Numbered from the whole stretch's first letter, positions 1 to 54,855 are shown. The stretch is 62,499 bases of DNA, filler included, from Psammoneis japonica (GCA_008632985.1; 6 parts of 6 records of this genome joined end to end with filler, not necessarily neighbours in it); one strand, 5' to 3'. Notes: generated from the sequence alone by a model not told the origin. Numbers and translations are program-made.

Positions 1-125
1 TTGCAAATTCAAAGCCCAGCATTGCATGAATTTCCACATGCATCTGGATCACGTCCCCTTTGTGCTTTTGTGCCCTCCTCAGCCACCATTTTGTGCCCTC
101 TGCCACTTTTGGTCATTGTTGGTTT

Positions 126-590
126 GTGCAAAGTTGGCATGCCAAGTTTTGTGCAAAGTTGGCATGCCAAGTTTTGACCCAAATTCGACATGCCAAGTTT
201 TGCTCCAAAGTTGGCATGCCGACTTTTGACCCAAAGTTGACATGCCGACTTTTGCTCCAAAGTTGGCATGCCGACTTTTGACCGAAAGTTGGCATGTCGA
301 CTTTTGACCGAAAGTTGGCATGCCGACTTTTGACCGAAAGTCAGCATGCCAACTTTTGACCCAAAGTTGACAAGCCGACTTTTGATCCAAAGTTGGCGCG
401 CCGACTTTTGATCGAAAGTTGGCATGCCGACTTTTGACCGAAAGTTGGCATGCTGACTTTTGACCGAAAGTTGGCATGCTGACTTTTGACCGAAAGTTGG
501 CATGCCGACTTTTGACCCAAAGTTGGCATGCTGACTTTTGACCCAAAGTTGGCATGCCGACTTTTGACCCAAAGTTGGCATGCCGACTTT
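126..590. repeat. Tandem array of about 18 units of 25-26 bp with a 20-bp near-palindromic core AAAGTTGGCATGCC(G/A)ACTTT
   Basis: Directly visible unit gacttttgacc(c/g)aaagttggcatgcc; the 26-aa periodicity of the overlapping ORF translations equals 3x26 nt. Confidence 0.97.
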
Positions 591-602
591 TTCTTTTTTT
601 TT

Positions 603-880
603 AGCATGAGACTGAAGTTCCTTGGACCTTCCTCCTCCTCTGCCAATGGATTCCTTGTTGTTGCTTCACTCAACAATTGTGGCATCTGCCTTCTTCCTTT
701 TGCTGTCGACTGCCTTGGTGGCCTTGGATTCTTTGCGCACTGCCTTCTTTTCAGCTCTGCACTTTCTTCCATGTGTTCCCAACCCAAGCCTCCCTGGACC
801 TCCTCCTCTGATCTTCATCATTCTGATGCTTCCTGCTCTGCCTTCCTTTGTGCCACATCCTCTCTGTTGGCTCTTCTCGC
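603..880 (+). pseudogene. Fragment of the C-terminal restriction-like endonuclease region of a CRE-like non-LTR retrotransposon
   Basis: Translation SMRLKFLGPSSSSANGFLVVASLNNCGICLLPFAVDCLGGLGFF aligns with SMRSKFL*HAGSSSDGSPATQSLNDDGKVFLPFAIDHLGGIGFF from the minus strand at about 53490-53630. Confidence 0.7.
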
Positions 881-1879
881 ATTGGTCGCTTGGTTTGGTT
901 TTGCCATGTTTTTGAACAAAATTCACCAGGATTGCCACCTTTTACCCTGTTTTTCTACGGAAAGGGTGGATTCCCGGGGAATCGACACAAATTTTCCTTC
1001 GTTGTGTGTGCACTCAATGCACAAATAAAAAATTGTGCATTGGTGTTTCCCCGTGCTTCCCCTCTCGTACATTTCCATGTGTTCTGCGTGCCGGCATGCA
1101 CGGAACCACACATCAGAATTGAAAATCAACAATCACAACAGAAATGGGCAACACGCCATGGAGCGGCTTGCACCCCAGTTGTGACGGCTTTTGTCAAACA
1201 ATGATGACACCAGTCAATCTGGTGAACAACATCAGGATCGATGGCATAAAATGTGAAATGAAAAGAAGCTTGACAGATTGTGTTTGGAAAAAAATGGTGC
1301 GTTGATGGATCGTTGCACTTGTTCTTTTGTCGTGCGGTCACAAATGCAAGCCACACGGCGTCTGTGGTAAAGTCCAAGGCAAAAGTGGAGCTGTCCATGG
1401 TGAACAAAAACATGGCGGATTGAATGGTCTTGCTCATTTTTCCAGTCATCAGAGGCCGCAATGTGGTGTTGTTCACATTCCTTTGGAAATTTTGGCACAT
1501 TTAATTTGACAAAAGTGTGCCATCATTGGCGACAGTTCATTTTTGTTTTGATGGTCAATTTGCATTTGTTGTCACCGTTTTATGTTGGCAATTGTTGCTG
1601 TTTTGTTTTGCTTTTGAGCTGCCAAAGAATTTCAATGAGCCCTTTGTTGTTGAAAAATGCTTTTTGTTTTGACCAATTCATCACATGTTTGTGGAAACGT
1701 TGGCTTTGACAGTGCTTTTCAACAGCTTCACCGCAGCCTTGCATCGCCACAGACAATGGCATTTCTCCCTCGCCCCAGTCGGCCATGCAATTGCCTGGGA
1801 ACACTGGCTCATCATTTCCACCTGCTTGCTCCAGTTGTCCAGTCAATGGGTCCCTGCCTGCATTTTGGTGCCTTTTCTG

Positions 1880-2709
1880 CATTGCAAGGAAAACCCTTGG
1901 CTGTCCCGACATTTGGTCCTGCATCATGACTTGTGGTTGGTCCATTGGGAAATCCTGCCGTGCAAAAAGGCGAACATGTCCTGTGACACAAAAATCTCGA
2001 GGAGGCTCTGCATTTCTCCAAAATGTCTGGAGAGACAGTTGAAGAACAGCAGAACCGCGTGTGCTTCTTCACCGCAACATCCAGGCAATGGCAGAATTTG
2101 TTCACACGATCATTGCCGGAGACGACCCAAACGATCCTTTATCCGGCAAGCCTTGTTTCCGATTTTTGCTGTGCAAAAGTCTCCAAAGTTTGATCAACGA
2201 TTGAGCCCAAGACCTCCACAGTGCTCATTTTGTCACTGACATCATCATGCGTTGTGTTCAGTGCAAGCCCAAGGACATGGACCATTGGTTCTTGAAGATT
2301 TTCTGTCACGTCAAAACCCAAAAGGAATGGCACCTCTTTGTCAATGGCTTTCTGGTCACATGCGATGCCAATGATCCTGGTGCCCAGGCGGATGAGATCA
2401 AGGGGTTCCTTGCCAACTCAACCGGTGACATGAAGAACATGGTGACGATGCAAGGCGATTCCCTTGCACGCCGTGAGGCTCATGAAGAAAAAATCAATTC
2501 CATGTTGAATCACGAATTTGGGAAGCGTTGTCCCAAGGAGCAAATTGGCATCCGACCTGGGCACAGCAAGCAGCTCACAATGCTCCGTTGCAGAATGCGT
2601 GATCAGAGGGCCGACTGCTTGGAAGACAACAACAAACGAATCTACAACTCTGGAACCAAACGCAAAATTAGGAGGACCCGCAAGGATGGCACCTGTTTGT
2701 GCGATGGCA
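1880..2709 (+). pseudogene. Decayed gene fragment of an unknown repeated family (second copy at 50520-51348)
   Basis: Peptides RKTLGCPDIWSCI, KINSMLNHEFGKRCP and KIRRTRKDGTCLCDG are shared with 50520-51348; several frameshifts. Confidence 0.8.
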
Positions 2710-4400
2710 AGAAACCCCAATCTGTTGACCTTGCTTCTCATGGAGTTTGTCATGCTGTCGACAAAAACACCAACCTCTCTTTTTAAAGTTCCGTTTTCAA
2801 ACAGGTGCATCATGTCACTTGCCGTGGAAAGGGTCACTCTGAAAGGCTGTTCTCCAAAATCTGCATTGAGCAAGCTGTTGGTGGGCACATTGTGCTGCTT
2901 CATGCAATGAAGCTGCTGCAGCCAGTGGTTCCTTTCTTGCTCGTCAAGACTGAGATCATTTGCGTGGTTCTGGACTGACAAAATGTCACCAGCCCTGACG
3001 AGTTCGCACTCCTTCCAAGGGTCGTCAAGCTCATTGCATCCGGTCATGCAAAACCTGGAACAACATTGGTGACAGTTCTTGGCGCCATGCCTGCCCACAA
3101 GGCAGTCACCACTCTTTGCATCTCCGTTGATTGGGGTTGTTGTTGGAATGACATGAAGGAAACGCATCTCATCACCGCATTGAACGCAGCAGCGAAAGCC
3201 ACTGTTTTCCATCATGTCCAGCAGAGGCTGGAGCATTGTTGCCAACACCTTGTGACAATCCTGGATGCTTTGGCCCTTCTCCGACTTTTGAGCGTTAGAT
3301 TGCTGTTTGGCGGCGGAGGAGGACATTTTTTCCAGGCCGGGAATGTAACCAAGGACACGCCACTTTGCTCTGTCATGCCATTGGTTGCAGGCAACATGAG
3401 CCAACGTAACTGTGACGGGTTCTCCACAGGAAGACAACATGGAAGCCGTCTTCCCAGTCTTGTCAACATAAATTGTCAAACATTCGAGGAACTTTTTAGA
3501 GGATCCGAGACCCTGGCTGTGCATGTGCTTCTGCACCACTCTCCTGCCAAAACACACTTGTCGTGCTTTCCCATTGAGACATGCATTCCGCATGGATGGG
3601 CAGTGTCGGCAAGATCACTGGGGTTGGCCCATGTGTGAGCATCCAGCATGAACGATTCCCACACATCTTTGAAATTCCATCGCGGAACTCTTGCTGTTGT
3701 CTCACCGCGTTCCCCATTGAGGCTTTCTAGGTTGACTGGAATCATCTCGCATTCCGGACCTGCAAAAGACTCACGTGGGTTATCCATCAGTTTGGTCCAG
3801 CGAGGGATTTGCATTCCAAGATGGAAGGTGCTGCCACAGTGTCTTTTGATGAACTTGGCGATCTTGTCACACAGGTGAAGCGGTGCTCTGCAGTCGTCTA
3901 AGAGCTCACACAGCTCCACACAAGCACCGTTGAGGTTGCCAAGAGATGGCATGCGCGCAAATGCATCTTTGGCTGGGCTGCGGCACACCTCACCCAATCG
4001 GCTGTCTTCACTCCACAAATCATCTTCGTCTGAGATGTTTGATTTGTCAGGATTTGCAACTTCGGAGCCCTCCATTGTGACATCTGGCAATGCATCAAAC
4101 GAGTTGTCTGGTGACAAGCTTGCTTCGGAAGACAAGTCCAGGGACATGCAATGAATTTCCTTGTGATGGGATTGCGACCCAAGAGCGGAAATGTCATCAT
4201 CAAATGGTGGTGACCATGGTTCATTGCTTCTGTCATTTTCATTGTCAGTGGACCCAAGCCCAATGTTTGCTGTGGACGCACCTCGTCTGGACTGCCTCAG
4301 CCCTGGCTGTGACGAGTCATCTGATGAGGAGGAAATGTCAAGATCAACCGACCCACGTCTGTGAGAGAATTTGTTGCTGACGTTGGAAGTTTTAGCCACA
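2710..4400 (-). mobile_element. Plavaka-like (CACTA/EnSpm-related) transposase pseudogene, 3' truncated at about 2710
   Basis: Ordered motifs YVDKT, EPVTVTL, WRVLGYIP, CHKVL (family YH..L), INGDAKSGDCLVGR, SRFC, DMMHLFENG in ORF 2418-3593; upstream APLHLCDKI in frameshifted ORF 3476-4399. Family recognised from memory, no HMM run. Confidence 0.75.
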
Positions 4401-5159
4401 ACCCAAGGGGAGGCACATGCGGACTTGCAATGGACAAGAAGGGAATTGTTTGCGATGCATTAAAACTGGCGAAGTGGTTCCAGCGTGACATCGTGCAAGA
4501 CAACCATGAAAGACTTTGGTTCTGTGAGCAAATGGAGTTCTTCAGGTTCTCTCCAGGGACAGTCAATGAATGGATGCTGGACATTGTCCGGAAGGAGGAT
4601 GGTGAGTGGGAGAAATTTCAAAGCAGGAGAAAGGGAAGGTGTTGGGTGGAGAGACGTTGTCGTGTTGAAGTTAACGAATTTGTGAGAATGGTCGGAGCGG
4701 AGACAAGGGCTGTCACCCAAATGACTGACTGTTCCAACATCGGGCGATGCATCAGGTTGAGAGTTACGAAGTTAGAGGGTGATGACAAATTGGACTGGAA
4801 AAAACGATTTGGTGCCAAAAAGGATGGATGTGCTTGGGCCCCAACAGCGAACCGGAACAACGTTAAAGCAGGAGAGGGGTGTGTTCATTGCAGCAAAAAC
4901 AACTTTTACAGGTGCACGTTTCACAAAGAGAGGTTTGAACTGGAATTCGCAATGATTCAAAATTTTCACAAGACAACAAGGAGTGGTGAAATGGACAAAT
5001 TGTGTGCACATTAAAAGATTTGGTCAATTGTCAATTGTGCTGCATTTGAGAAAAAGGAATCATTGGTGGCAACTGTGAGATTTTTGGCATTAAAGAGAGG
5101 TTTGAAAGTTTCCCAACGACAAAAATGACTGGGGACACAAGGCATGGAGACAACCACAA

Positions 5160-6420
5160 TTGGCAACAGTGGCACAGGCAATGGCGCAGAAGAGGAAGAA
5201 AGAAACTGCGGGGGTGGCTGGAGATCAACCAACAAGCCCAAGGCTGGCCACAGCGTTGGTGCGGGTGGGAGCCACTGAGGATCACCAGTCTACAAAGAGA
5301 GAGGTAGAAGAGGTGGTGTGGAAGGAACTTTTCCCAAAGGCAAAATTCCTTGTCAAGGCAGACATGGCAAGCAGTGGCAAAGTGTCGCGGCTCATCAGGA
5401 AAAAGACAGCCGGAGGAAATTACAGCAAGCAAGACTGGGCGGGAGCGTGGGAAGACTGGGCAAAGAAGTGCATCATGCACGCAATTAATGCAAAAAGGAG
5501 CATGGTCACTCAGGCAATCAAGAACAATGCAACGGCTGGCAAGTGTTTTGTGGTGCACGGCATGTTGAGTGCAGCTGCACTTGACACAGCTGCACCTTCA
5601 TTTGCTGAAGTCATGTTGACAGAGAATGAAGCAGAGGAGATGCGCAGTCAGAAGAAGCCGGCAGCAAAGGGCAGAGGTGGGAAGAAGAGCAAGAAGAGGA
5701 AGAGGAATGATCGTGCAGAAGAGGAAGAGCCGTTCCTGGCAACTTGGGGGGAGGAGACAGTGACAACGATTGTGGAGGACAAGCGCAAGAACAAGGAAGC
5801 ATGTGCATGGTTCTACGAAAACATCCTGAAATTCACAAAGAGCACCACCACATGGAGAAGGAAGGCAGAGTCGGGTGAGACGAAGGCAACTGGTCTGGCT
5901 GCAGCAAGCAACGAGGCTCTGGTGCTGTTGACATTTGAAAACTGCTGGAAGAGTTGGGAGCACAAGGCACGTCATGACAAGACTGTTGCAGCAGGGGGAG
6001 GTTCGGACGAAGAAGATGAGGAAAAGTTTTGAACCAACACCCAAGTGCACGGACCCGTCGAGGCAACGAGACTTGTGGAAGGATGCAGGGATTGAGCAAT
6101 TCAACAAACTGCTTGCGGCAGTGAAGAAAGACAGGTTGAGTGAGGAGGGCATGCAGTTTGACACATGGTGCAGCGAAGGCAAGAAAAGGAAGAGTGATGA
6201 AAGAGGCAAGGGATCAAAAAGAAAGAAAAAGCAGGTGGAGGAGGCAAGAACACAGGCAACAACAGAGCTTTCAAGTGACAACGAGGAGAAGGAGGAAGAG
6301 GCAACGGACGAGAACAGAGGAGACGAGGACAGCGAGGAAGGGGAGGAGGACAGTGATGCGGAAAGCGATGCGAATGTAGATGCAGATGCTGAGCGAGCTG
6401 CGGCAGACGTGTTCCAGTCC
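5160..6420 (+). pseudogene. Transposon accessory ORF, divergent from the transposase, with basic and acidic low-complexity tracts; frameshift near 6030
   Basis: Motifs WKELFPKAKF, INAKRS, SNEALVLLTFEN.W..W, then PKCT...WKDAGIEQFNKLLAAVKKDR in the next frame resemble the SDEA..L..EN / W...G...FN.L...V..DR ORFs I recall next to diatom Plavaka transposases. Confidence 0.55.
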
Positions 6421-7529
6421 CAGGTGACACACAAAACGACAATCGATTTTGAACATAAATTGTGTGTCTGTCAGTGCATGGAGCATGTTCACATAAAATG
6501 CTCAACTCTTTGTTTGCCACTGCGGATTGCTGCGGATTTTTTCACGCGGTCGTGCGGACGTGCGGACGCTCATTTTTTTCACACCACACCACACACCACG
6601 TTGATGCAAACAGCCTTCATGGATGTGATTGTCTTCGCCGTTGTGACAGAATCACCACAGTGGGTGATGTCTTCTGTCGTCCAATTGCATTTTTGACATT
6701 TGACAATGTGCTTCCTGGCGTTGCCGCTTCTTCTGCTGCAGCAATTTGACTGCATTCAAAGCATTGCTGTTGTTCCACTGTTTGAGACATTGCCACTGTG
6801 AATTGTGCTTTGAATTGTAGAAGGGGGGCGAAAGAGATGCAGGTGATCTTTTGTTTCAGCACCAAAGCAAGCTGCATTGCTGTCTCTTGCGTTGTTGTCA
6901 TTTGTCACTCGACACATTTCATGCAATGTCTTGGCATTACACACCAACACGTGTTTCTGGCTGCGCTCATTCATTGCATCAGAATTGACAGAGAGTGCAG
7001 TGCCGTTGATGGCGTGGCAGCAGACTGTCAAAGCAATGCCTGTCACTTGGACTCAGGTGTCAGTGCTGATGCCACAGGAATGGCAAGGATGCCTGGCACT
7101 TTTCAAGAAGTCGCTCTTCCTTTGGAAACAACATTTTTGGAAACGGTTGTCGTGTTGATGCTGTTGGATTTGAAACATTGACGGGGGGCGAAAGCGACAG
7201 ATGCAGGCAAGCTTTTGTTTGCTTTTTTTCAAAGCAAGTTTGTGTTGTCGTCTCTTCCGTTGTTGTTTGTTGCTCAATGCATTTCATGTTGCACCTTGGC
7301 ATCACGCGCTAAAGCATGTTTTTTCAACAACAACAAACAGCACACAGCAACAGGTCTTTAATTTTTAGCTGCTTGGAGTTGTCATTTCACAGTCATGTGC
7401 AAGCTTTCTTCTTTCAAGCTGGCTCCAGGACTCGAGTCTCCAAAGTCAAAGACAGGGCACTCTGGGCGACGGATTGCTTTCAAATCCTAAACTGCAGCAA
7501 GCCAATGTTTCCTTGTTGAGTTTCACAAT

Positions 7530-8570
7530 CAACAGAACAACAGCATTGTGCTGTGGGCTCACCCATTTGTTGACATTCCATTAGATTTTGTCAGTGGGAT
7601 GCCAAAAACAACAACACCGATTCTGTCAGCCTCGGTCGGTCGCACCTGTCACGATGCAAGAAATGCCAATGAGAGCCGGTGAGAAACCACGAATTGAAAA
7701 CTCATCAAAAACACAACAACAACCCAATCCAAGCCATCACAATGCACCTTGCCATGTTGACAATCACCCAGTGTGGTGTCGGGGTGCACTTGATTGCAAT
7801 GACTCCGAAAGTCAATGTGCCTTTCTGTTGTCTTTGTGAAGAGCAAGAAACAGCAGCACAAAAAGCAAGGGTTAGCTGAGGGAATGTGAAATGTGAAAAA
7901 GGACAATCTGACAAATTAGAACAATTGCATTGTGATGTGTGCTTGCCTGTTTGTTTGAAATTCCACCAGATTCCGTCCTGCTTTGTTTTCTTTGATCGGA
8001 TTGGCGCAAGAAGCGACGGGTGAAACAGTCGCAAAATTTTGTAAACTGGCGGCTGCAGGAGCCACCCAGGACTCCAAATCAGCATCCTCCATGGCAGTGT
8101 CGAGAGAACCAAAGGCAAGTGTGGAGACACGCTTGCCAATGTCCACGTCCATCATGCCCATGCCATCAACGACCGTGATTTCGCACTGAAAGCAAAAAAC
8201 AGCAGCACGAAAAGCAAGGGTCAGCTGAGGGAATGTGAAATGCTAAAAAGGACAATCTGACACTGCAGAACAACAGCATTGTGATGCATGCTCACCTGTT
8301 TGTTTGCCATTCCACCAGATTCCGTCCTGCAGATGACGAAACAACAACACCGATTCTGTTGGTTTTGGTCAGTGCGCATGACACAATGCAAGAAATGCCG
8401 ATGCGACATCCGGCAAGTGAAGACGTGAAAAAACAACGCCAACGCAACAACAAACCAAACCAAGCTGTCATGACACACTTTGCCATGTCAACAATCACCC
8501 CGCATGACATGGGGGTGCTGTCTGTTGCAATGACTTGGAACGGCAACGTGCCATGTTGGTTGTCTTTTTT
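7530..8570 (-). repeat. Internally duplicated exon-intron module of a decayed gene
   Basis: 7533-7836 resembles 8267-8566 and 7840-7981 resembles 8188-8330. On the minus strand, 8296-8187 reads GTGAGC...GCTGAC...TTTGCTTTCAG (donor, branch point, acceptor). Confidence 0.7.
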
Positions 8571-10086
8571 GGTTGGGTGCTGCGTTGCGCGGCACGAAAA
8601 AAAAAAGCGCGCGTGTCGCTGTGGTGAACAAAGAGTCAAGCGGATTGGCTTTTGTGGGTGTCTGGAGCATGCACAATCATGAAGAACCAAACAGTTTTTT
8701 GTGGGGCATTGAAGTCCTCATGGAGTGTGCATCATGAACTTCCTCAGCAGACTCAGTGCTGATTGTGCGTCAGTGCTCTTCATGCTGAGATTTCTTTGCA
8801 ACTGGAAAACACACTAAGAAGCATTGCAGAAAGACACGTTTGGTCAACATCCAAACAACGGCAACAATTTCGCCGAAAATCATCCGTTGTGTTGCGACTC
8901 GTTTGTGGCAATGAAAAACATTGATGGCACGACAACAATGATTTTGCAACACTCACAAGAGTCTTGCCAGTGTTGCAAAACATTAGAATTTGAACAAATC
9001 TGCATTTTTGGTGGTGAAAAACCGTTCGCAAGTCAGAGACCGCGCAAAAATCGCGCAAATGTCGTTTTTGTGCACGATTTGGGTCACCTGCGGCTGGAAC
9101 ACGTCGGCATGAAAAGGCAGTGGAGGCTTTTGTCAGTGTGATGATGGAAAGAGGATGAGCAACGCAGTGGGTTTCAATGTCAACAGTTAAAAGGTTTGAC
9201 AAAGCATTTTGGGGATCATTGTTTTGTGATCTAACCTTTCGTTTGACAACCAGTGCATGCAACAGAAGGTCACTTAAACCAATGAAACGCAACGATTGGC
9301 ATCAACTTGTCATCAAACAAAACGTTTTGAACATCTCTTTCAAAAGGTAAAAAGTGACGGAATTCTGACAGTTGAGGGAGGGGTCCCACAGGCAAAGGAG
9401 GGGTCCCATGGTGAAAAATGTCACACCATGACACACAATGAAAAATCACGTTCTACACAACTCACTCAATGTGAAAGCATTGTGTTTGCACCTGTGACAG
9501 TGTTAAAAATTGCCTGTGAGAAGGGTGGTCAGGATCACCATGTTTTGCGCTCTGATGGTCGACACATCTTGTGCTCAGAATGAAGCGGATCGTTTGGAAT
9601 CACTGTCGTGCAGAAGCTACAAATGCAAACCATGAGGCATCTAGAACAAAGGCCAAGGCAAAAGTGGAACCTCACAAGGCCAATGAAAATGTGTCGGATT
9701 GAGTGGTCATGCTTGTTCTTTCCTTTGACCCATCCTGTGTGCAGAATGCAGTGTGTCATGCATTCCTTCTTGTGTCGCGTGGTCACAAATGCAAACCACA
9801 AGGGCTCCAGAGCAAAGGGCAAGGCAAAAACAGAACCTCACATGAGCAACATTGACGTGGCTGATTTGATGGTAAAGTTTCTTTTTTCCTCACTCTGCCA
9901 CAAGAGGCCGCTTTGTGTCGATGTGTCGATCGATGCATTGCACAGTGCAGCACTCATTTGCCAAACAATCATGGGGACAAAGCACACCCACCTGAATGCA
10001 AACACCGCACATGCTGGTTGATGCTCTTGAACAAGTGACAAGACAGGTGCCAGGTTGGGGTTGCCACATTGGGGACAATCTGCAGC

Positions 10087-10875
10087 TTGCAAATTCAAAG
10101 CCCAGCATTGCATGAATTTCCACATGCATCTGGATCACGTCCCCTTTGTGCTTTTGTGCCCTCCTCAGCCACCATTTTGTGCCCTCTGCCACTTTTGGTC
10201 ATTGTTGGTTTGTGCAAAGTTGGCATGCCAAGTTTTGTGCAAAGTTGGCATGCCAAATTTTGACCCAAAGTTGGCATGCCGACTTTTGAGCCAAAGTTGG
10301 CATGCCGACTTTTGACCCAAAGTTGGCGTGCCGACTTTTGACCGAAAGTTGGCATGCCGACTTTTGACCCAAAGTTGGCATGCCGACTTTTGACCCAAAG
10401 TTGGCATGCCGACTTTTGATCGAAAGATGGCATGCAGACTTTTGACCCAATGTTGGCATGCAGACTTTTTCTTTTTTTTTTTTAGCGCGAGACTGAAGTT
10501 CCTTGGACCTTCCTCCTCCTCTGCCAATGGATTCCTTGTTGTTGCTTCGCTCAACAATGATGGCATCTGCCTTCTTCCTTTTGTTGTCCACCACCTTGGT
10601 GGACTTGGATTCTTTGCGCACTGCCTTCTTTTCAGCTCTGCACTTTCTTCCATGTGTTCCCAACCCAAGCCTCCCTGGACCTCCTCCTCTGATCTTCATC
10701 ATTCTGATGCTTCCTGCTCTGCCTTCCTCTGTGCCACATCCTCTCTGTTGGCTCTTCTCACATTGGTCACTTGGTTTGGTTTTGCCATGTTTTTGAACAA
10801 AATTCCCCGGGATTGCCACCTTTTGCTCTGTTTTTCTACGGAAAGGGTGGATTCCCGGGGAATCGACACGAATTT
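10087..10875 (+). repeat. Long direct repeat, copy 2 (truncated by contig end); includes the second CRE endonuclease fragment at about 10484-10770
   Basis: Collinear with 1-994. Confidence 0.95.
10212..10468. repeat. Second 26-bp palindromic-core tandem array, about 10 units
   Basis: Same unit as 126-590, fewer copies. Confidence 0.97.
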
Positions 10876-38379: not shown

Positions 38380-38640
38380 GTCTCCATGAAACTTGTTGGG
38401 ACATTGACAAACTTTACAAGGACAACTGCGCCACATGGCTGACAGCACCACGCACCTGGAGCTTCGGCGCGTGATGACCAACTCATCTTGGTCGCCAAAT
38501 AGAGAACCTCAGCATTCGTCATGGTGACCTCTTTGTTTTGTTTTTTGTGCTGAACACGCATCATCTCCACGAAGCTTGTTGGGACATTGATGAACTTTAC
38601 AAGGAAAAACCGCGCCCGATGGCCAACAGCACCACGTGAT
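38380..38640 (+). repeat. About 182-bp tandem duplication
   Basis: tctcca(t/c)gaa.cttgttgggacattga..aactttacaagga at 38381 and 38564. Confidence 0.85.
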
Positions 38641-41019: not shown

Positions 41020-41052
41020 TGCACTTTGTACAATGCGTCGGCAGCCAGATGG

Positions 41053-43760: not shown

Positions 43761-44899
43761 TGAAAACCGTTCCGGGACTTAAACTGAACAAGACTCGCAT
43801 CGGTTGCTTGTCAGATTTTCCCCAAAATTTGGCAGTGGTGGAAAAATCGAACAACCAGCAACCAGTCGACAGCAATCCACATTGCTCAGAATCGCACCTC
43901 CATCAGGGTTGCCATGCATTGTCCTCCATTGCTCACACATCACACCCGCTGTCAACTTGTCACATGCATGACATCACTGTCCACAACACGAACAACCTTT
44001 AAAAACACTTTCTCAGAATCGCTCAGCAGTTGATGTCAGAATCAACAGTGCCCAAAGTGGTGCGATGTGTTTGGCCATTTTACGAAGACCCGAACACCCC
44101 AACGATTCATGCGACCGCAGTGACGTCAAATCATGACCGCAAAAAACAGCCGAAAATCCCCAAAACGACAACATGCCTCGAAAACGAGATCATGAAGGTG
44201 TGCTTTTCTCTTTGCCAAAAAAACCGCCACGAACCATTTGCAACGAACTGGGAGTGTCATAAAAAGTCGCTGCACGATTCTTTTTTATGGTCGAAAAACC
44301 ATGTTTTTCGTTCAGGGTCAGGCATTCATTGGCCCGCCATTCCGGTGTGTAGAGAGTTGCCATCAGATTTCAGACCGACTCCGGGTCCCTCCCTGGCGTC
44401 GACCTGTCACACGGCTGACCCACAGAAGCGCAGCCAACGGACCAAGGCTGTGTGGCATGTGCGCTGTTTGTTTCATCGTCACGAGTCTCATCTTCTGTCA
44501 CAACTTCCTTCTTCGTTTTTTTGTTGTTTTGGTGGGAGCGACGACAGAGTTGGCATTGTTCAACATCATTCCTCCCATTCATTGCGGCTGGTGCAACAAA
44601 CTGATGGTGGCTGTGCCACTCTACATGCGCACTGCGAAACGCGCGCGGAACATCGCGCACCCCCTGAAATTCAAACATTTGTCAATTTGTCGCGTGGCTG
44701 CTGGAAAAGTGGAGGTTGGGACAGGGTTGCAACATTTTGTGGGAGGTTTCTGAAAAGTGGATTCTTCGTGGTGCTTGACGTTGATTCCTGCAAGGATCAG
44801 TGTTCTCTTCTTGTTTAAAACAAAATGTTGCTCAAATGTCAAAGTGTTTGAGGATCTGACTCCTTGATTTAGTGACGACTTTGTCCGAGTGATTTATGA

Positions 44900-47800
44900 A
44901 GTTCCATTGCATCGGTCATTTGGAAATGTCTTGGTCATCCAAAGTGAATTACAACCGCATTCGTGCACTCAGATGTTTGCTCACATGACAGTGTTTGGCG
45001 ACGATGACTCAACGAAATTTGCTTGAATGTTGAGCAATGTTTAAGGGTGACTGTCTTTCTCTGAACAAACCCGTTGTCCGTCCCCCGTGTGGGGTGAACA
45101 ACCCGTGCAATGTGAGCCAAGCAAACCTTTGGTGTTGCAGTGCCCAGGTGCTTTGTTTTCTTTTTTTTGAAGCAACTGCAGCAGCTTTGTGGTGCCAGCC
45201 AAGGCACGAGCACCAACAAAGCAGGAGGGGGTGCAGCACCCTGCTTGCTGTGTTGCCCATTTTTGGGTCCAGCACCCAGCGCCAAGAGGCAAGCTGAAAC
45301 GGGGCAACACACAGCTGCAAGGGGGCAGCTGCAGGCTGGAGAACAGAGCGCATTTGTGAAGTGCGTCCTGAGCTGCTCTCAGCCCTCAGGTCACAAACTT
45401 TTGGCCCTGCGGCCAGATTTTGGCCCTCATCAGAGCTGCAAAACACTCAAAATGCGGGCACTGGTGGTTTTTTGCTCTCTCCAAGCCAGCATCTTGCAGG
45501 AGAGCAGAGCAAATGTGGCAAAACACACGTGGAAAATGATGACTTTGGGTGGACTCAGCATCCCAAATTTTTGGCTTGCTTCAATTCAGTGGGCGACATT
45601 TGTGCGATGCACAACAAAAACAACAGCCGCGCACAGTGCAGCAAACATGGCAATGGCATTCAAAGTTGATGGGAGAAGCCAATCACCCATTGTCACAGCA
45701 GGCCATGACAGTGGCACGCTGCTGCTGGCACTCTGATGACTCACGATGCTTTGTTGGTGCATTGCGGGAATGCGGGCCAGTCTCTTTTTACCTTGTTGTT
45801 GTCATCCTTTGTCGCTGGCATTTTTTTGCCTTTCTCTTTTGTTCTGCAGCGGGCTTCTGACTCTGTTGGCTCTTTGTGAATTTGTTTGCAGTTTCATTTC
45901 CTTCTGAACAGTGGCCCCAAGTCTCCAAGCCTTGCACATTGCACGTTGCTGCTCCTCAAAAATTTGACATCCAGGCAAACCTTGTTGCTGCTGCTTCCAA
46001 ATCTGGCGACCCTTCCCGACCACAGCACCGCTTTTGTTCACCAATCCACCAACCCCAGCTTCTGTTGTGATTCTTCCATTGATGTCCAAGAGTGTCTTCC
46101 TTGGAATGATGTGTTGTTTGGCAAGCACAAACCGTTCCCATCATTTTGGCTTTGTGTTCTCCATTGCAACACGAGTGGTTTTTCCTCCTCTCACGACCGC
46201 AGTGTTGCCTTTGTCCACAAATGTGCTGTGAGAAGTTAGAAAAAGCATGTGCTGTCAGCCGGCAAGCAGTTGAACAAATTGACCTTGTTGTCAAGCAGGC
46301 AGAATCCACTCCAAAGATTTGTGCAAGATTTTGAGTCATTTTGGACTCACAATCAGTGCAAGATGTTTGGTGGTGGTGATGAGGAGCTTCTTTGTCCTCT
46401 GGATGTTTTCGCGCAGTGTCTTTTCAAACAGCATCAACGACATGCGTGTTGGTGCCATCATTCAGAGGCAGCTCAGCATTTTTTCCTTTTGTTTTGGGTG
46501 CTGCTGCTGACCTTGCATCTTTTTTTGCTTTCAGAGCAGTTGCTCTGTCTTTCTTTCCAATTGATCTGGAACCAGTGCCATGTGTGCAACCCTTTTCTCC
46601 ATTGTGGCTGGTTCTGACTCGTGAAGACCATTGTTGACAGTTGCTCAGAAAAACCAAAATTTGTGGGAGAAACAGCGGCGCCACATTTTATGATGTGCAA
46701 GGGATCGCACACAGAACAGTGCCAGGTGCTCAAGGACATGCTTCATCAATTTTGGACATCTTGCTCAACAGCGCCTGACAAAGTTCTCATTTCATGACAG
46801 CAAACACCGCCCCACCGAAGCACAAAGTGTGTGTGCACTTCTTGGTTCTTCCTCTCAGCTCTCCACATCACATCTGTGCAGCACACTCATCTGACTTGTT
46901 CCCACCGAGTGATCATGGCTGTGCACAAGGAAGAGCCTCATCACAAAGAATTTTTGAGACACTTAAAAAAATCCTTGAGTAAATTGTTGTTGTTTTGTTG
47001 CTTCTTTGTGGTCATTTTGAGTCTTGTTTGTGCCAAAAACTCAAAAAAGTGAGATGACAGATCCTCAGAAAATGCAAAGAAGCATTGATTTGCACCTGGA
47101 ATCTTGCAAAAATTGCAAATGTTTGTTGAGATTTCTTGTGCACAAGCAAAGCAAAAAAAAAAAAGCAACCGTGTGGGTCTCAGCAGCACAGGTTCTGCAT
47201 GCAAGGCATTCCATCAATTGGCAGAGGGCTTTTGCCATGTGGCAGGACGGCACTGCTCATGGTGCCAGCTGTTTGGTGTTTGAGGGCAGAGCTGGCTCTT
47301 TTCACTGAGCACCTTTTGACATCATTTTTGTTTCTGTCCACAACAAAAGCAACCTTCTTCCAAGCAGGAAATGATGGCAAGTGGAGCTTGTGGCTTGCAG
47401 TTGTTTCTTTCTCAACAACTGTGCAACTGTGACAACTTTCTGGTGTTGTTCATTTCTGACAAGAACAGCGATGCTCTCATTTGTCTCACTGACCAGATTG
47501 CACATCGGGCTGTGTGTTGCTTCATTGTCTGATTTGCACCTGTTTTGTCTTGTCATTTCTGCGCTGAATGACATGCTTTTGCTGCCTGTTTCCTGCCCTT
47601 TGTTTTTTCCATGCGTCCCACCAGCTCCTGTTGTTTTTTGCAGTCCCCACATGAGAGTGCCCCAAGCGCTTGCCAGAAACACACCCCGGCATGGATTGCC
47701 AGGCAGATGCAGAGCTGATCAGATGGAGAGCAATGACAAGTGCCTCTCACAAAGCACCCAGGGTCACAAGCCCAAAAATGTTGCTTGTCGTTTGCAATCC

Positions 47801-50500
47801 AGATGGCCAACAACCTGCAAGGAAAAATGCTTGCTGCAACTGCCAGGCCCACTTGACGGGCTCCAGTTCTGGGCGGGACTCCATGCGGCATTGGGCCCAC
47901 AAAATTCTGCACACAAGCTCTGCAGCACAAGAGCTCAATTGACGGAAGCACTCATCTTCAACATGTCAAACAAAAGAGCAAGTTTGCAGTGCATTCACAC
48001 CTTTCCATGCTCAAAGTTTTTGAACATCCACCTGCCTCGCACCATTCCCAAGACATTTGAGAATGGCACAGAAGCAAAAAACATGTTGTGCTGAAAGTTG
48101 GCAAATGGACAGCCCAACAAAAATTGTGAAACAAAAGGACACAAAATTCCACCACAAAGTCATGCAGAAATGAATGTGTGCAACATGCAGCACAATCCAA
48201 AAAACTGTTGACATCACAGTTCAGCAGTGTGAGGTCCCACCCAGAGCTGGAACTTGTCACTTTTGGCATGTCACCTCCATTGACAAAAATGTGTCAACCA
48301 AGGAGGAAGGAAATGGAGCAAAGTTCCAAATGGTGTCATTGGGTCCCGTGATGAAGTGTTGGAATTTCTGAGACTTGAGTGCGCACAAACCAGCAGTGGT
48401 TTTTGCAAACACAGGGGCTGGAGCTGCCTCCATTGGCAAAACAAAGCATTTGCACCATGCTGCCAGAAGGCATGGCCCAACTGCCAGCTGTGCCATCAGA
48501 TCTGCAGAGGTGCACATTGATGGTGTCAGTCAAGGTGCCATTTGGCAAGCCAGTTTGCAGAAGTTGGGGCACAATTCACTGAGACAAATCAAGGGAGAGA
48601 GACTCATGTTCTGGGGATCATGGTTGTGTGCTTTTTGACTTGCACAGGAGATGGCAAACTTGATGACTCACTCACCTTGGCACACAGATGATGCAGCCAT
48701 CCTCTTCAGAGAAACACCAACCAACTCAAGTCAGCTGTTTTGGAGCGACACACAAAATCACACTTGTTGGCTGGCAAGCCCATGTTTGATCTTGTTGTGG
48801 TCTCCTTGACAAAAAAGGTCCTTGCATTCAAAGACAACCCAACCCTGAAGGAAGAGGATCCAAGATGAGGCGTCAAAACCCAAGCACAAATGGGCAACCC
48901 TGACTGTGAATGTGTGAGGGCATCAAGCCAAGATTGTGCACTTGGAAGCCACAAGATGACACCATGGTTGAGAGACGAGCAATGTCTCAAGACTGGGCAG
49001 CCACACAAAGTTCAAAAGTGCTTGGATTGGATGGAACTTTTCACAGGCACACATGTCCTCAAGGAGCAGTGGACTGTGGCAACAAAGAAAAGTGAGCAAA
49101 TCATCAGAAGCTCGGCACTCAAAGTTTCAACAAAGATTGGCGTGAATGTGCCTGAATGAAATTTAAAAATGGAAAACCAGGCTGGCTGACAAGAGCTGAG
49201 AAGCTTGTCTTGTGCCTCACAAAAGCAACACTGCAACCACCTGTCTCTGGGCTGCCAACTGCAGGCACCATGTGTGGACAAACTGGCTTGCACTCCCTCC
49301 TTGGATTGGCAGGTTTCTCTTGGAGTTCATCACTGAATTTCCTGATGTGACTGCATCCCTGCCTTCCTGATGAACAGGCCTTTTTTAAGTCAACAATGGA
49401 GGTCAGTGCATTTTCCACTGAGCGGAGCAGTCTGATTCAGGCCGCCACCTTTCACCTGGACAACTTGTCCAATGTTTCTCTTGTTGGCAGAAATGACTTC
49501 AACGAAGTTTTCTTTTGCATCAAAAAAGGTTTTGACCCAAGCAAGCTGTGTCACATTGGCAGTCGCCAGAGCTGGTGCACACAACAATGCATGGCTGTTG
49601 CAGATTCAGTTTTTGCCACCATGGGGACTGACATTTTCTCCTGAGCAATTTGCAAGAGCAGCACAAATGTTTTTCATTGCACTTTGCTTGCAACGCAGTG
49701 GTGCTCAATTCTCTTCACACAATTTCTGCCAATCAACGTTGTGCATGTTGATCTTTCATTTGGGGTTTTTGCATGCAAAAGTGAGCGGCACACTGCCTTT
49801 GTCAGATGCGTTTTGTGTGGACGTTTGTCACCTGTTTGTTTTCGTTTGTTCTCAGCAATCAATCCAAACGTGTCCTTTGCTTGATTTTGATGCATGGCAA
49901 TTTGACAACAACATTGCATTTGTTTTGAAACGTTGTCTTTGACAGTTGTTTTCAACAGCTCCACCTTGCACATGCCTCGCTGCAGTGGCTGGTGTGCCCT
50001 CTGCACCCAAGTCACCCCCCATGTGCACTTCCTGCCTCATTTTTCCAGCACTTCCCAGAATTTCAGTGCACAGCTCTCTGCCCAGTTTCAAGTGCACATT
50101 CCACATGTGCGGTTGTCTGTGCACTTCACAACAGTGCGTCCTCTCTCCAAATTGCATTTGACCAGAGCATGTGCTGTTGTGATTCATGCACGTTCTACGT
50201 GAATCACAACTGACTTCTTGCCATGGTGGTCAGCAACTTTGCCCCACCCCATGATGAGGTTGGCCCCAACCCTTCCTTCCAATTTCCCAATGAGGTTGAT
50301 TTTGATGACATGGAATGTTTTGCCAACGGCTTTGGAATGGAGTTGTTTGGTCTCAAGCTCAAAAGCATGGTTTCAACGCATGCATCCAAAAAGCAGCTCT
50401 TCTTGGAGAGGATGAAATGGACTCCCTCTCCACAATTTCTTGCTCTTCCCTTCCTTTGCCACAAGCCAAAGTTGCATTGAATTCCACATGTTGTGGAAGT
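44900..50500. mobile_element. Heavily decayed, unclassified repeat-derived DNA, TpA-depleted and increasingly CpG-depleted
   Basis: Same composition as 10976-16330; only Cys/His-rich spurious ORFs. Confidence 0.5.
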
Positions 50501-50519
50501 CATCCACGCCAACAATGTT

Positions 50520-51348
50520 GTCAGGAAAACTCTTGGATGCCCTGACATTTGGTCTTGCATCAAGACTCGTGGTTGGCCCCTGAAGAAATCCTGCATGCTG
50601 AAAGGTCAGTGCATTCTTTGTCATCAAAATTTGGAGGAAGCTCTCTGTTTCTCCAAACTGCCTGGAGAGACTTTTAAAGAAGAGGAGCACCATGTGCAAC
50701 TTCACCGCAACATCAAAGCGATGGCAGAGTTGTTCATGCAGTCATCACCGGCGACAACCCAAATGATCCTGTTTCTGGCAAGCCTTGTTTCCATTTTTTT
50801 TTCGGTGCAAAAATCTCCAAGCATTGATCAACAACCGTGCACAAGACCTTCAAGGAGCATTTTTTGTCACCAAAATCGTCATGCATCACATCCACTGCAA
50901 AGCAAATGACTTTGGCTGTTGGTTCGCGCAGATTTTTTGCCATGTCAATGCCCAAAAGGAGTGGTGCATGTTTGTTGGCAGCTTTCCAGTCACATGCAAT
51001 TCTGATGACCTGGGATCCCAGATGGGTGAGATCAAGGAATTCCTCACAACGGACAAAATTGGTGACACAAAGACAACTCTGTGATGATGGCAGGTGACTC
51101 CCTTGCCCATCGGGAGGTGTGCAAAGAAAAAATCAATTGCATGTTGAATCATGAATTTGGGAAGCGCTGTCCTGAGGAGAAACCTGGCACACAACCCAGG
51201 CATGGCAAGTTGCTCACAATTTTTTGTTGCAGAGCACGTGGTCAGAGGGCTGGCTGCATTGATGATGACAACAAACAACAGCATCAATCCAAAACCAAAT
51301 GCAAAATCAGGAGGACCCACAAAGATGGCACCTGTTTGTGTGACGGCA
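50520..51348 (+). pseudogene. Second decayed copy of the unknown gene family seen at 1880-2709
   Basis: RKTLGCPDIWSCI, QKEW, KINCMLNHEFGKRCP and KIRRTHKDGTCLCDG. Confidence 0.8.
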
Positions 51349-52731
51349 TGTCCCCCCCCTGTTTTTCCTTCACCTCCTGTGTGCATTTGTTGTCTCATGC
51401 ATCCTTTGTCCCTGTTGTCTTGGCGCGCCCCACAAGAGCCTTGACCGTCCCCAACAAGAAGTCAAGGACCTCATCACGCTGGAACACGGCATGTCCTCCA
51501 TTGTCTGGTGACGTGCCATCACCCAGGGAGGCATGCCGCACTCTCGCCACTGACCTTCCCACTTTGTTGGAAACCATGGATCATGCAAAATCCTGTTCTT
51601 CCCCAAAAGGTCCTCCCTCCAAGCTGCCCACCTCTTGGCCGGTTGTTGCCACAAATCTCCTGGCTGTTTTGTCTCCTCCACTGGACCCCAATGACATGTC
51701 GTGGCTGGACATGTCTGCCCTCTGCCAGTGCTTTGACCACCCAAGTGCTGATCTGTTGCATCAGAGGAAGTTGCTGCCCATGTGTCATGCCTTTGCATCA
51801 TTGACAAGGCCGCTGACACTGAGCATGTGCTGCACCATTCCACTGCTGACTTTCACCCTGCAGACAACCTGAGGGAAAACTGGCACATGTTTTCCAACAA
51901 AACTCCCACAAGCAATCCCGCCACTGCCTCCCATGTCAAAGCTGAGTGCCCTCCTCACCTGGATCACTGCTTGGAGAAACTCTCTGTTGCTTGACAAGCA
52001 AACTCTCTCCACAAGGGCACTTTGGTTGCCCTCGTGTGTGAATTCCCACCCTTTTGCTTTTCATTTTGTTGAAGGGTGAGTCAAATCTAAAACACGACGG
52101 ATTGCTTGCAGCTGAGAAAGAAGACAGACAAAGGACCAAGTTTTGCTGTGCTGGGCAGTTGCATCATCCAAAGGAGCCCGGCTCCACCAAATCAGCCTTG
52201 ATGTTTTTGATCCTGACAAAAATTGGACGCCAACAAGTCACCCAAAATCAAGGCCATGGTGGCAGAAATTCTCAGCTTAGCTCAGCTTTGCAAAAATGAG
52301 GTCGAGCTTTGGAAGCTCAGCAACCCTCCACCAGTCAACTGGTTGCTTCGACACAACAAGAGTTCAAAAGCACTGTGTGACGAAATGGGTTGTCTGCATT
52401 TCCAACAGGAGGACATCACCATGCAGGCATTGTGCATGTCCCAGACACATGTCAGTGTTGCAATGTCATTGTTTTTGCACAGTCAATGTTTTTTCATTGC
52501 GACAAACAAGTTGCAATGCAACGGATGATTTTCGCAAAAAAAAATTGAAGATTTGCATGCTGCTGCTGTTTGAAGGCCAGCACAAAACATTTGTGTGTGC
52601 ATTTTGTGGTGTTGGTCCACTTGCACAAAAATTTCTGTGAACACATCATGAAGACTTCAGTGCCAACAAAAAGAATCATTCAAATGTTCATGCTCCAATC
52701 AAACACAAAAGCCAGAGTGCACAAGTGTTGA

Positions 52732-52831
52732 NNNNNNNNNNNNNNNNNNNNNNNNNNNNNNNNNNNNNNNNNNNNTTAATTAATTAANNNNNNNNNNNNN
52801 NNNNNNNNNNNNNNNNNNNNNNNNNNNNNNN
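52732..52831. other. Artificial contig linker
   Basis: N44-TTAATTAATTAA-N44. Confidence 0.98.
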
Positions 52832-52899
52832 AGTGCACTCACAGCTGTGCCCTCTGTGTTGTGCTTGCCAGCCCAGAACCACCCTGGTGTGGCCCACTG

Positions 52900-54500
52900 A
52901 AAAATGCATTTTTCAATCACCGCACTGCATCATCATGAACCATCAATGGAGAACTGCAAACAGATTTTGCAGATGGAATTCCATTGATTCTGAATGTTTT
53001 TGTCAAGTTTTGCATCATGGCACTGGTTGTTGCTTTGCTGATTTAAAGTGGAGGGTTAAAGAGCCCAGTCAGCAAACAAAGAGGAAGCAGCAAGAGAAGG
53101 CACGGAAAGAGCTGCAGGGGTGGGAGCAAAGAAGGGGTGCACAAGACAGCATGTGGGGTGTTTTAAAGAAGGGACCAGAGATGCATCAGTGCAAAGTTTG
53201 GACAGGAATTGCAGAGCATGGGCTGAAAGGTGATGAACAATGTTTTGTGGCCAAGAGTTTGGGTGGCCCTCTGAGATGGGGCAGAGGAGTGGCAGGAGGA
53301 GCCAAAATGGTGAGCAGCAATTTGGCACCAGCCAAAGTCAGCAGAGGACAAGAGCACAGCAGATGGCAAAGCAAGAGTGTGACAGAAGGTGATGCAGGAG
53401 CAATGAGAGCCTTGGACAGCAGCAAAATTGGACCAGAGAGGCTTTGGCTGGGAGCAAAGAGCAGAGGGGAGGAAGAGCCAAAGAGAAAGTGGTGAAAGAA
53501 AAAACCAATGCCACCAAGGTGATCAATGGCAAAAGGAAGGAAGACTTTTCCATCATCATTGAGAGACTGAGTGGCTGGGGAGCCATCAGAAGAGGAGCCA
53601 GCATGTCAAAGAAACTTTGACCTCATGCTCATGTGGTGTGCTTCAGGCAGAAGAGCTGATGAGGAAGGAGCGGGTGGACTGGGGGGAGGGCAAGGGGGAG
53701 CTTTGGGGATGGTTGCATCAACAGCAGAATGCAATGGTGTTGGGAGGGAGTGATGACAGAGGTGGNAGGGGCGGCAATGCCAACATCAGCCTGGCAAAAG
53801 AGGGGGTGGTTTGGGAGGAGAGAGGACCCAAGGTTTGGGCGACAAAAAAAGACTGTGTTTCAGATGGCATTGGACAGCCCAGATTTGTGATTGCCTTTGC
53901 AGGTGAAGGCATGATCGCTGCCATTGGCATCTGGGGCAGTGTGGCCACAGGAGCACAGAGAGTGCCGACAAGAGATTGAGGCAGCACGGGAAGGCAAAGC
54001 TTGCGTTGGGTGGCAATGGCGTGTTTGTCGAAGGAAAGGAAAGTGGCGTCAGAGCAGCAGGAAAAAGAGCAAAGCAACAGACTGGCAAGAGGAGAGAGAA
54101 GGGAGGGTGGGGTGATTTGGATGTCCAGGAGAGCATCAGCAAGGGTTTGATTGACAATCCTCTGTTGACAAGCACGGCAGAGCTGACGCTCAAGTCCAGG
54201 GAGCACAGCCCAAGGGATTTGACAAGATCAGGGAGAGAGGGCAGAGAGAGTTGGAGAAAGCCAGAGAGTCAGAGACAAGGATTGGAGAGCAGCAGTGGAA
54301 GAGGGTGCACAGGCAGAGGCTGGAGTCAGGATTGTTTGAATCTCTGGTGGGGCGAGGAGACCCAGATGGGAGGTGAGCACCGTGCGCGGCAAAGCGGAAA
54401 AAGGAGCGGAGACGGGGCATGAGAAAGGAAGGGATGGCAGCAGCAGTGGTTCTTGAAGATCAAAGCCACCAGGGAGCAGGGAGGAAGGCAAGGGCAAGGG
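52900..54500 (-). mobile_element. Decayed 3' part (Zn knuckle plus restriction-like endonuclease) of a CRE-like non-LTR retrotransposon
   Basis: Frameshifted motifs PDANGSDHAFTCKGNHKSGLSNAI (D..GDH..C...HN.IR), CQADVGI (RPAD) and FLPFAIDHLGGIG (PF..D..G..G). Confidence 0.65.
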
Positions 54501-54855
54501 AGTCATTGGTGGGGTTGAGATGAGAGAGGGCGCTCGAAGCGAGTCGGCTTTGCAGGAGGAAGGGCAGAGAGGCGGCTCGCTCGTGCGTGCCCAACAGAAC
54601 GAGGACCACGCGCAAGCGAACTCACGCACGTCGTCGACGACGACTCCTCTGACTTCAAGTGCGTGGTCCCTCATCATGATCCCTTTAAAATTTATATGTT
54701 CCCGAATACATTTCGATGATCATGGTCCTCGAAAAAGGCAAACAAGCGACAACACGTCAGTCCGTCATCGCACCCACTGTCGCACNGACACTCGAATGTC
54801 AGGCCAGGATCAAGAACATAATTCAAAGTCAACAAGGCACGAAAGAACAGAGACC

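Follow-up and report, generated by a model that had tools for sequence, protein, structure and literature searches.

We consider it likely that, in the 62,499 bases of diatom DNA analysed here (called the window throughout), a local process acting on both strands turns TpA into TpG or CpA (A:T>G:C, at TpA only) in stretches of silent DNA. Its targets would be a decayed transposon of the Plavaka family, a 2-kb insert between two genes and other stretches. In these targets the conversion of TpA would be almost complete, ending within tens of bases at their margins. It would be accompanied by the ordinary decay of CpG to TpG/CpA that is expected from cytosine methylation in diatom repeats. A sequence-only reading of the same window had proposed a region-confined TpA>TpG/CpA change on both strands that is neither fungal repeat-induced point mutation (RIP) nor decay of 5-methylcytosine (5mC), and this is supported by the composition and the mass balance given below.

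Loss of TpA and CpG in confined blocks

The TpA-poor blocks of the window contain 173 TpA in 39,797 bp (observed/expected ratio, o/e, 0.07). The gene-bearing host DNA, 17,834 bp in all, contains 698 (o/e 0.59, about 39 per kb). The density was 5.7 TpA per kb in 1-10875, 4.3 in 10976-16330, 4.0 in 21965-23215, 1.3 in 25175-26760, 5.3 in 32326-52731 and 1.6 in 52832-54660, and many 1-kb windows of these blocks held only 0-2. Counts made by hand in the sequence-only reading (22 TpA in 10981-16320 and 19 in 19501-19860) were exact. TG and CA were both raised, TG to an o/e of 1.63 (host 1.16) and CA to 1.68 (host 1.15). The near equality of the two indicates that both strands are affected. Besides TA, only CG was depleted (o/e 0.46 against 0.98 in host DNA). 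The earlier reading was right about the loss of TpA and the gain of TG/CA, and had laid little stress on this depletion of CpG. AA (1.28 against 1.16) and TT (1.33 against 1.19) were slightly raised, and neither AT nor GA was depleted. To judge from composition, the A:T>G:C change is thus confined to TpA. The G+C content remained nearly constant (0.489 against 0.483), since the A:T>G:C changes at TpA are counterbalanced by G:C>A:T changes at CpG.

Losses and gains were balanced over the 16 flank contexts with the strands pooled. Under a host-like ancestral composition and strand-symmetric CpG decay, which this balance and the flank analysis below assume, 34.8 TA and 29.8 CG were lost per kb, together 64.6, and 62.2 TG+CA were gained. 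Since the losses match the gain, the missing TA and CG became TG or CA and not other dinucleotide steps. CpG decay driven by 5mC alone was rejected as an explanation: the 29.8 per kb covers about half of the gain of 62.2, and the TA loss of 34.8 needs another cause. Loss of TpA was uniform across the blocks and loss of CpG variable (o/e 0.04 to 0.99), which argues for two separable processes.

The same change is visible in translation. Tyr made up 0.2% of seven long open reading frames (ORFs) from poor blocks and 2.4% of five host ORFs, while Cys (5.3 against 3.0%) and His (4.5 against 2.5%) were raised. The Tyr-poor, Cys- and His-rich translations described earlier are therefore borne out.

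The window is not one locus. It consists of at least 6 contigs, whose lengths decrease from about 10.9 to 10.1 kb. The contigs are joined by linkers of the form N44-TTAATTAATTAA-N44 at 10876-10975, 21610-21709, 32226-32325, 42538-42637 and 52732-52831. This linker gives a stop in all six frames, and features that seem to end there are assembly joins. The TpA-poor blocks are as follows; X1 is a public sequencing run described below.

1..10875: contig 1, TpA-poor (TA o/e 0.08, CG 0.56); by homology a Plavaka-type relic with repeated ends
10976..16330: TpA-poor; of all blocks the one with the heaviest loss of CpG (TA o/e 0.06, CG 0.13); no Pfam family; inner edge at 16327-16339
21963..23216: TpA-poor island 1, with genes on the same contig; the window and X1 differ in it at TpA and CpG sites
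25179..26764: TpA-poor island 2, with 2 TpA in 1,586 bp; left part of a 2.15-kb insert at 25179-27325
32326..40574: TpA-poor block of contig 4 (TA o/e about 0.09)
41031..42537: last part of contig 4, TpA-poor; contains the duplicated segments cited in the sequence-only reading
42638..52731: contig 5, TpA-poor throughout (TA o/e 0.04, CG 0.42)
52832..54685: first part of contig 6, TpA-poor (TA o/e 0.03); edge to host genes at about 54686

Sharp edges lie within contigs at about 16327-16339, 21962/22301, 25118/25217, 26764/26765 and 54686. At island 1, a TpA occurs every 5-60 bases or so up to 21962 and the next one at 22301. At island 2, TpA is regular up to 25118, occurs once at 25217 and is then absent before 26765. 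Transitions between poor and normal DNA thus take place within tens of bases, and the duplicated flanks of the insert keep their TpA. Of the abrupt boundaries claimed earlier, those inside contigs are confirmed and those at linkers are assembly joins. The stretch 32326-52731, most of which had been given as TpA-poor, is poor overall and is broken by a TpA-normal patch at 40575-41030. This patch of about 450 bp has ordinary TpA density (about 20 TpA) inside contig 4 and may be a younger insertion or a protected segment.

Long ORFs are expected in the poor blocks, because TAA and TAG no longer exist there. The longest (398, 341 and 331 amino acids, aa) were slightly longer than the simulated 95th percentiles of 307-323 aa from a dinucleotide-preserving model. 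None of the 144 poor-block ORFs of at least 100 aa (19 + 125 stop-to-stop ORFs) matched a mobile-element Pfam family, and the four stray Pfam matches among them were all under their cut-offs. For the 341-aa ORF at 42756-43778 (-), no homolog was found in a word-indexed search of proteins of 187-597 aa.

Attacked base and trigger

Survival of TpA in the poor blocks depends on its flanks. Relative to host DNA, the residual density was 0 for ATAT (0 against 47 sites) and ATAC (0 against 97 sites), 0.013 for GTAC, 0.023 for ATAG, 0.09 for CTAC, 0.11 for ATAA, 0.13 for GTAA, 0.22 for CTAG, 0.36 for CTAA and 0.52 for TTAA. The flank distribution differed from that of host DNA (chi-square P 6e-31) and was fitted by an additive two-strand model, and the order of survival recurred in four separate contigs. 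To assign products to TA, one half of the corresponding loss of CpG was subtracted; the remaining gain was 12.8 per kb with a pyrimidine after the edited A and 3.4 with a purine. Split by the base after A, the gain per kb was 8.4 for C, 4.4 for T, 2.7 for G and 0.7 for A, that is TAC>TAT>TAG>TAA. The base at position -2 had no effect (7.0 against 9.2).

The chemistry could be deamination of adenine in DNA by a TadA/ADAT-like enzyme, an assignment that we make tentatively and hold at somewhat short of even. The natural target of TadA/ADAT, A34, follows U33 and in bacterial tRNA-Arg is followed by C35 (U33-A34-C35). This UAC context of TadA/ADAT2-ADAT3 and of TadA-derived base editors would match the TAC>TAT>TAG>TAA order estimated here. 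No TadA/ADAT gene lies in the window. The earlier statement that no enzyme gene is visible agrees with this, as no deaminase was found among the window genes.

Alternatively, the thymine could be attacked. In silent DNA, an enzyme of the TET/JBP type would convert the T of TpA to a modified base such as 5-hydroxymethyluracil, which mispairs with G and leads to T>C. Neither such a modification nor such an enzyme was seen here, where no search was aimed at them. Thymine hydroxylation marks silent DNA in other protists. Since TA is self-complementary, all counts fit T>C as well as A>G. The flank rule reads equally as T preceded by a purine, because an A followed by a pyrimidine is exactly this on the other strand, and the rule is thus without power between the two attacks. 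The only published reading of the signature favours adenine deamination, also without proof in the passages covered (bioRxiv 10.64898/2026.01.13.699255), and we consider attack on thymine unlikely.

The sequence-only reading had named the process repeat-targeted, a 'reverse RIP'. Three kinds of repeat bear on this, two of them listed here.

16714..18415: 183-bp x 9.2 tandem array, control; ordinary TpA (o/e 0.7-0.8)
24788..25178 (+): left copy of the 390-bp duplicated target; normal TpA; mean column identity of 91% with the right copy
27326..27715 (+): right copy of the 390-bp duplicated target; normal TpA; aligned with the left copy

The tandem array (82% matches; alternative period 370 bp) lies about 400 bp from the end of a poor block and has ordinary TpA, as have both copies of the 390-bp duplication. 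The third repeat, 21800-21990, abuts island 1, has ordinary TpA and reaches a word depth of 527 in X1 against about 59 for its neighbours. This stretch is a multi-copy element, and many variant X1 contigs end at 21971-22003. Islands 1 and 2 are single-copy by X1 word depth, a measure by which old mutated copies would look single-copy too. A repeat-induced process is not supported, because the three repeats keep normal TpA, which weakens this part of the earlier claim. The three tests are weak ones, with lengths and identities near the limits of RIP.

A RIP-like system, in which homology is sensed and mutation follows, would account for the repetition of some poor segments in the window (the ends of contig 1, 93%; 50523-51348 against 1887-2709, 74%) and for poor blocks lying on short contigs, as repeats do in draft assemblies. 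It does not account for the array (82%), the duplication (91%) and the element of about ninefold depth (527 against 59) that all keep their TpA, nor for the single-copy islands. The main target in the alga Bigelowiella natans is likewise given as single-copy in the passages covered (bioRxiv 10.64898/2026.01.13.699255). We regard a duplication-triggered system as quite unlikely. The trigger of the proposed TpA process would rather be a marking by chromatin or small RNA than sequence duplication.

Differences between duplicated copies had also been quoted as evidence (41053-41288 against 41530-41760; 34885 against 41380). All of them are present, and as evidence for TpA mutation they are ambiguous, being mostly explicable by ancestral CpG. 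A pooled estimate gave an excess of CA/TG double differences (13 expected, 50 seen), which was mostly removed by per-pair estimates from the CG/CG and CG/TG|CA counts (about 40.6 expected from CpG decay). The copy pairs contained 12 sites with TA against TG/CA and only 2 shared TA sites. There was no signal of strand-coordinated TG versus CA patches between copies (29 runs against 27.0 +/- 2.9 by permutation), and one copy pair with 5 of 5 sites in a single direction was not significant.

The Plavaka relic and the ancestral state

Contig 1 carries the only element of the poor blocks that could be classified, and two coding regions are predicted in it.

2421..4459 (-): remains of a Plavaka-family transposase gene, spread over two frames that overlap (2421-3614 and 3479-4459)
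5106..6693 (+): second conserved frame, divergent from the transposase, with tblastx matches to related metagenome loci

Judged by homology, contig 1 is a decayed Plavaka-type DNA transposon, because its relatives carry the Plavaka domain, its second frame matches related loci and its ends are repeated. A phmmer search with the 398-aa ORF 2421-3614 (-) found 349 relatives at E<=1e-3, the best with 44% identity over 272 residues of a 1,154-aa protein (E 1e-60). Pfam PF18759 (Plavaka transposase) was detected in 8 of the 10 top relatives at E<=1e-3, two of these under the gathering cut-off. The relic ORFs of 2421-4459 (-) themselves gave no Pfam match even at E<=5. ORF 3479-4459 (-) matches the portion of the same homolog just upstream of the match of ORF 2421-3614, and tblastn with 16 Plavaka homologs matched only 2652-4081. 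By tblastx, 5238-5573 and 5712-6464 (+) match DNA upstream of the transposase in related metagenome loci. The two ends of the contig (1-994 and 10087-10875) match each other at about 93%. Each end of the relic also has an array of 26-bp units that contain a palindrome (129-591, 17.8 copies; 10215-10469, 9.8 copies). Both are probably subterminal binding-site arrays of the transposon, as predicted from their position. Contig 5 has a segment (50523-51348) that is 74% alike to 1887-2709 of contig 1. The poor blocks had all been called transposon-like; this holds for contig 1, and mobile identity was shown for no other block.

The relatives of the transposase also inform on the ancestral composition. 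TpA o/e was 0.42-0.82 in all 37 metagenome loci encoding them, a set biased to intact copies by its discovery via conserved peptides. Ancestry already free of TpA is not borne out for the Plavaka element, all of whose 37 relatives have ordinary TpA. To judge from these relatives, the ancestors were not already TpA-free, at least for the single classified element. Over the aligned region, Tyr makes up 2.1-4.8% of 12 homologs and 0.7% of the relic, in which Cys stands at 5.3% and His at 4.3%. Cys120 of the relic stands in a column with Tyr in at least 90% of ten aligned sequences. Polarisation was weak in two further comparisons: the 7 majority-Tyr columns of 30 homologs hold in the relic two Tyr, one Cys and one each of Val, Met, Ser and Arg, and Tyr makes up 9.0% of homolog residues at relic-Cys columns against a background of 3.5%. 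The relic has Arg at 3 of the 12 Tyr positions of the best homolog (2421-3614, -), and a change from TAY to CGY requires that T and A of the same TA step each undergo a transition. These Arg residues are a hint of a secondary A>G change at CpA, which would create CpG.

Without any special process, the source elements or viruses would have been poor in TpA and CpG already, or, as happens in many RNA viruses, selection on RNA would have removed these steps. A shortage of both CpG and UpA together with an excess of TG/CA is known in viruses from the sources covered, and most blocks are without a class assignment and hence without an assigned source. An o/e of 0.00-0.10 over tens of kb is far beyond viral biases and includes DNA without mobile-element Pfam matches, and a coding element cannot function at 0.2-0.7% Tyr. 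Together with the normal TpA of the 37 relatives and the TpA sites that are polymorphic between the window and X1, this makes a pre-existing bias very unlikely. Error-prone patch repair of the Pol-eta type (WA>WG), also offered in the sequence-only reading, would be recruited to methylated DNA after 5mC deamination and would tie together the loss of CpG and TpA in the same blocks. It affects AA as well as TA, yet AA/TT were slightly raised (1.28/1.33 against 1.16/1.19) and not depleted, and TpA loss was uniform while CpG loss ranged from o/e 0.04 to 0.99. Such repair is accordingly disfavoured and, in our view, hardly probable.

Run X1 was used as a check on the letters of the window. It has a word depth of about 59 and contains 88% of the sampled words from 21800-31700. 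X1 is not simply the source of the window assembly, because X1 and the window differ in island 1. An X1 contig of 6,625 bp spans 23541-30156, including the whole of island 2, with 2 differences (24781 and 27756) and none in the island. Over island 1 (21978-23343), the X1 contig showed 18 differences in about 1,366 letters (about 1.3%; 98.7% the same) against 2 in about 6,616 flank letters (about 0.03%). Among 16 listed differences of island 1, 10 were CG against CA/TG (CG in the window at 4 and in X1 at 6), 4 were at TA and 2 were other. The window TA is TG or CA in X1 at 22302, 22991, 23217 and 23280, a comparison that does not give the polarity. Thus 4 of the 10 TpA of the window were changed in the island 1 stretch, against 0 of 195 in the flank contig. 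These are signs of a TpA process that is active or recent.

The X1 contigs also bear on the fear that modified bases were miscalled in a long-read draft, which would agree with the unpolished assembly, its single Ns and its 1-bp deletions relative to X1. At a depth of about 59 they give the same letters throughout island 2 (0 differences) and in 98.7% of island 1. Moreover, only targeted DNA is affected and the relic protein shows a matching loss of Tyr, so that an artefact is highly improbable. ADAR-like A>I editing of double-stranded RNA, fixed via reverse transcription, is the least probable source of the signature: ADAR does prefer U before the edited A (bioRxiv 10.64898/2026.01.13.699255, in the passages covered), yet the classified target, being a DNA transposon, does not pass through reverse transcription, TG about equals CA and Cys about equals His on the coding strand of the relic, and non-genic DNA is equally affected.

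Several points weigh against the proposed TpA process. TA is palindromic, and the counts cannot tell A from T as the attacked base. The mass balance and the flank analysis depend on the assumptions given with them, and the per-pair estimate from CpG decay leaves little of the 50 double differences between copies. At the 12 Tyr positions of the best homolog (44% identity), the relic has 1 Cys, 1 His, 2 Tyr and 3 Arg, and Ser, Phe, Gln, Trp and Asn once each. No outgroup copy near enough was found, and the TA to TG/CA polarity is indirect. The library type of X1 is not recorded and the run perhaps comes from a related culture, which limits its independence. Mobile-element identity was shown for only 1 of about 7 blocks, the gene of the responsible enzyme was not found in a search limited to the window, and the evidence comes from a single window of about 62 kb.

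Neighbouring genes and known systems

The gene-bearing DNA supports the diatom origin of the window, as both host genes next to the insert have diatom relatives. The named relatives of the class IV aminotransferase gene at 23552-24901 (+) are only Fistulifera (47-48%), Mayamaea (47%), Seminavis (43%), Cylindrotheca (41%) and a Bacillariaceae metagenome-assembled genome (42%). Those of the aldehyde dehydrogenase gene at 27501-29339 (-) are Minutocellus (70%), Mayamaea and Epithemia (69% each), Nitzschia (67-68%) and Cylindrotheca (67%), besides one record labelled Patescibacteria (66%). Further host genes encode an inorganic pyrophosphatase, Sec66, an Oxa1/Alb3-type insertase and a WD40 protein. 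Contigs of a second run, X2, skip 28241-28330 and 28418-28505 with CT..AC ends (GT..AG on the - strand of the gene). X2 is probably RNA and the skipped stretches two introns of the aldehyde dehydrogenase gene. X2 spans both host genes and contains of the islands only two pieces of about 40 letters at 22786-22822, which has no bearing on expression.

The 2.15-kb insert (25179-27325) lies between these two tail-to-tail genes, flanked by a direct duplication of 390 bp of their original junction (91% alike). In each 390-bp copy, one gene end is real and the other is a pseudo-end. Where island 2 ends on the right, 26721-26870 (+) in ORF 25947-27149 has a weak histone-fold match (Pfam Histone, E 3.8e-4, under the cut-off). 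Matches of the same stretch to TAF and CBFD_NFYB_HMF were weaker still, and an acidic tail follows. The ORF may be a gene carried by the insert, to judge by its place there.

Single Ns occur outside the linkers at 19455, 27151, 53766, 54786 and 55832. Compared with X1 over 22131-31522, the window lacks at least 10 single bases, several of them outside homopolymers, and 4 bases are absent at the N of 27151. The assembly is unpolished, and frames of host genes may be broken artificially.

The sequence-only reading knew of no description of such a process, which is out of date: the same signature has been measured in the chlorarachniophyte Bigelowiella natans (Mettrop et al., bioRxiv 10.64898/2026.01.13.699255), a preprint of 2026 and the single known report of it to date. 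In the passages covered, 231 of 302 nuclear mutations of mutation-accumulation lines fell in integrated giant-virus and virophage regions, and 230 of these 231 were A>G/T>C, all at TpA. Per generation, each site mutated at a rate of about 6e-7, and the effect was confined to some of the lines. The same passages describe 124 clusters poor in TpA and rich in CpA+TpG, with reverse transcriptase and DDE endonuclease domains enriched in TpA-poor genes, and propose an ADAT2-like DNA adenine deaminase (bioRxiv 10.64898/2026.01.13.699255).

The process proposed here would be of the same kind. Both signatures are region-confined TpA>TpG/CpA changes on both strands, in which loss of TpA is paired with gain of CpA+TpG. 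In B. natans, diversity between the reference (2012) and a later culture (2021) was 27-fold higher in the target, as far as covered; here it was about 40-fold higher in island 1. In contrast, B. natans is a rhizarian and not a diatom, its giant-virus region has an o/e of 0.45 against 0.07 here, and its reported targets are giant viruses and virophages, not a relic of a Plavaka DNA transposon. Decay of CpG in the same blocks and a preference for the base after A are seen here. De novo mutations were measured in B. natans, whereas the polarity here is indirect. The terms 'CpG', 'diatom', 'flanking' and 'trinucleotide' have 0 occurrences in the B. natans text covered, and its tables S2 and S6-S12 may hold flank-context data.

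Fungal RIP, the functional analogue, resembles the process in its local, heavy transition bias that ruins mobile DNA, its sharp edges and its dinucleotide target. However, RIP makes TpA from CpA, whereas TpA is destroyed here (TpA o/e 0.07, CpA 1.68). RIP creates TAA and TAG stops, which are removed here, and it depends on duplication, of which there is no sign here. Decay through 5mC explains the loss of CpG, roughly half of the rise in TG/CA and the majority of the TG/CA differences that separate copies, but it cannot remove TpA. The CpG decay fits the cytosine methylation of diatom repeats described in the passages covered of PMC6604790. Mutation accumulation in Phaeodactylum showed a GC>AT bias and, in the same passages, no TpA effect (PMC6604790).

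In our literature search, no report of the TpA hypermutation signature in diatoms was found. New here are the near-saturation, the joint CpG decay, the flank preference (an edited A followed by C>T>G>A) and the diatom lineage. The function would be to disable foreign or mobile DNA. It is conceivable, though we think it doubtful, that the process is a genome defence by DNA editing which stramenopiles share with rhizarians and which may extend further. A TadA/ADAT-like adenine deaminase, directed to mobile or foreign DNA under silencing, would turn TAY to TGY on both strands until TpA is gone, in diatoms together with cytosine methylation.

Such DNA is without TAA and TAG stops and almost without Tyr codons, which gives long spurious ORFs, hides mobile elements from domain searches and affects annotation. 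The TAC>TAT>TAG>TAA preference narrows the search for the enzyme. Diatoms include transformable models with maps of methylation and histone marks, so that the target mark, the enzyme and attack on A versus T become testable. The base-editing field would also have an interest in a natural enzyme for the editing of adenine in double-stranded genomic DNA. A defence of the kind outlined above, if it exists, would join fungal RIP and animal APOBEC editing as a second counterpart, opposite to them in its chemistry, and would amount to a natural DNA adenine base editor. The signature near saturation in a diatom would mean that the system is not a curiosity of a single alga, and it may be widespread in the lineages of stramenopiles, alveolates and rhizarians (SAR), which dominate marine primary production.

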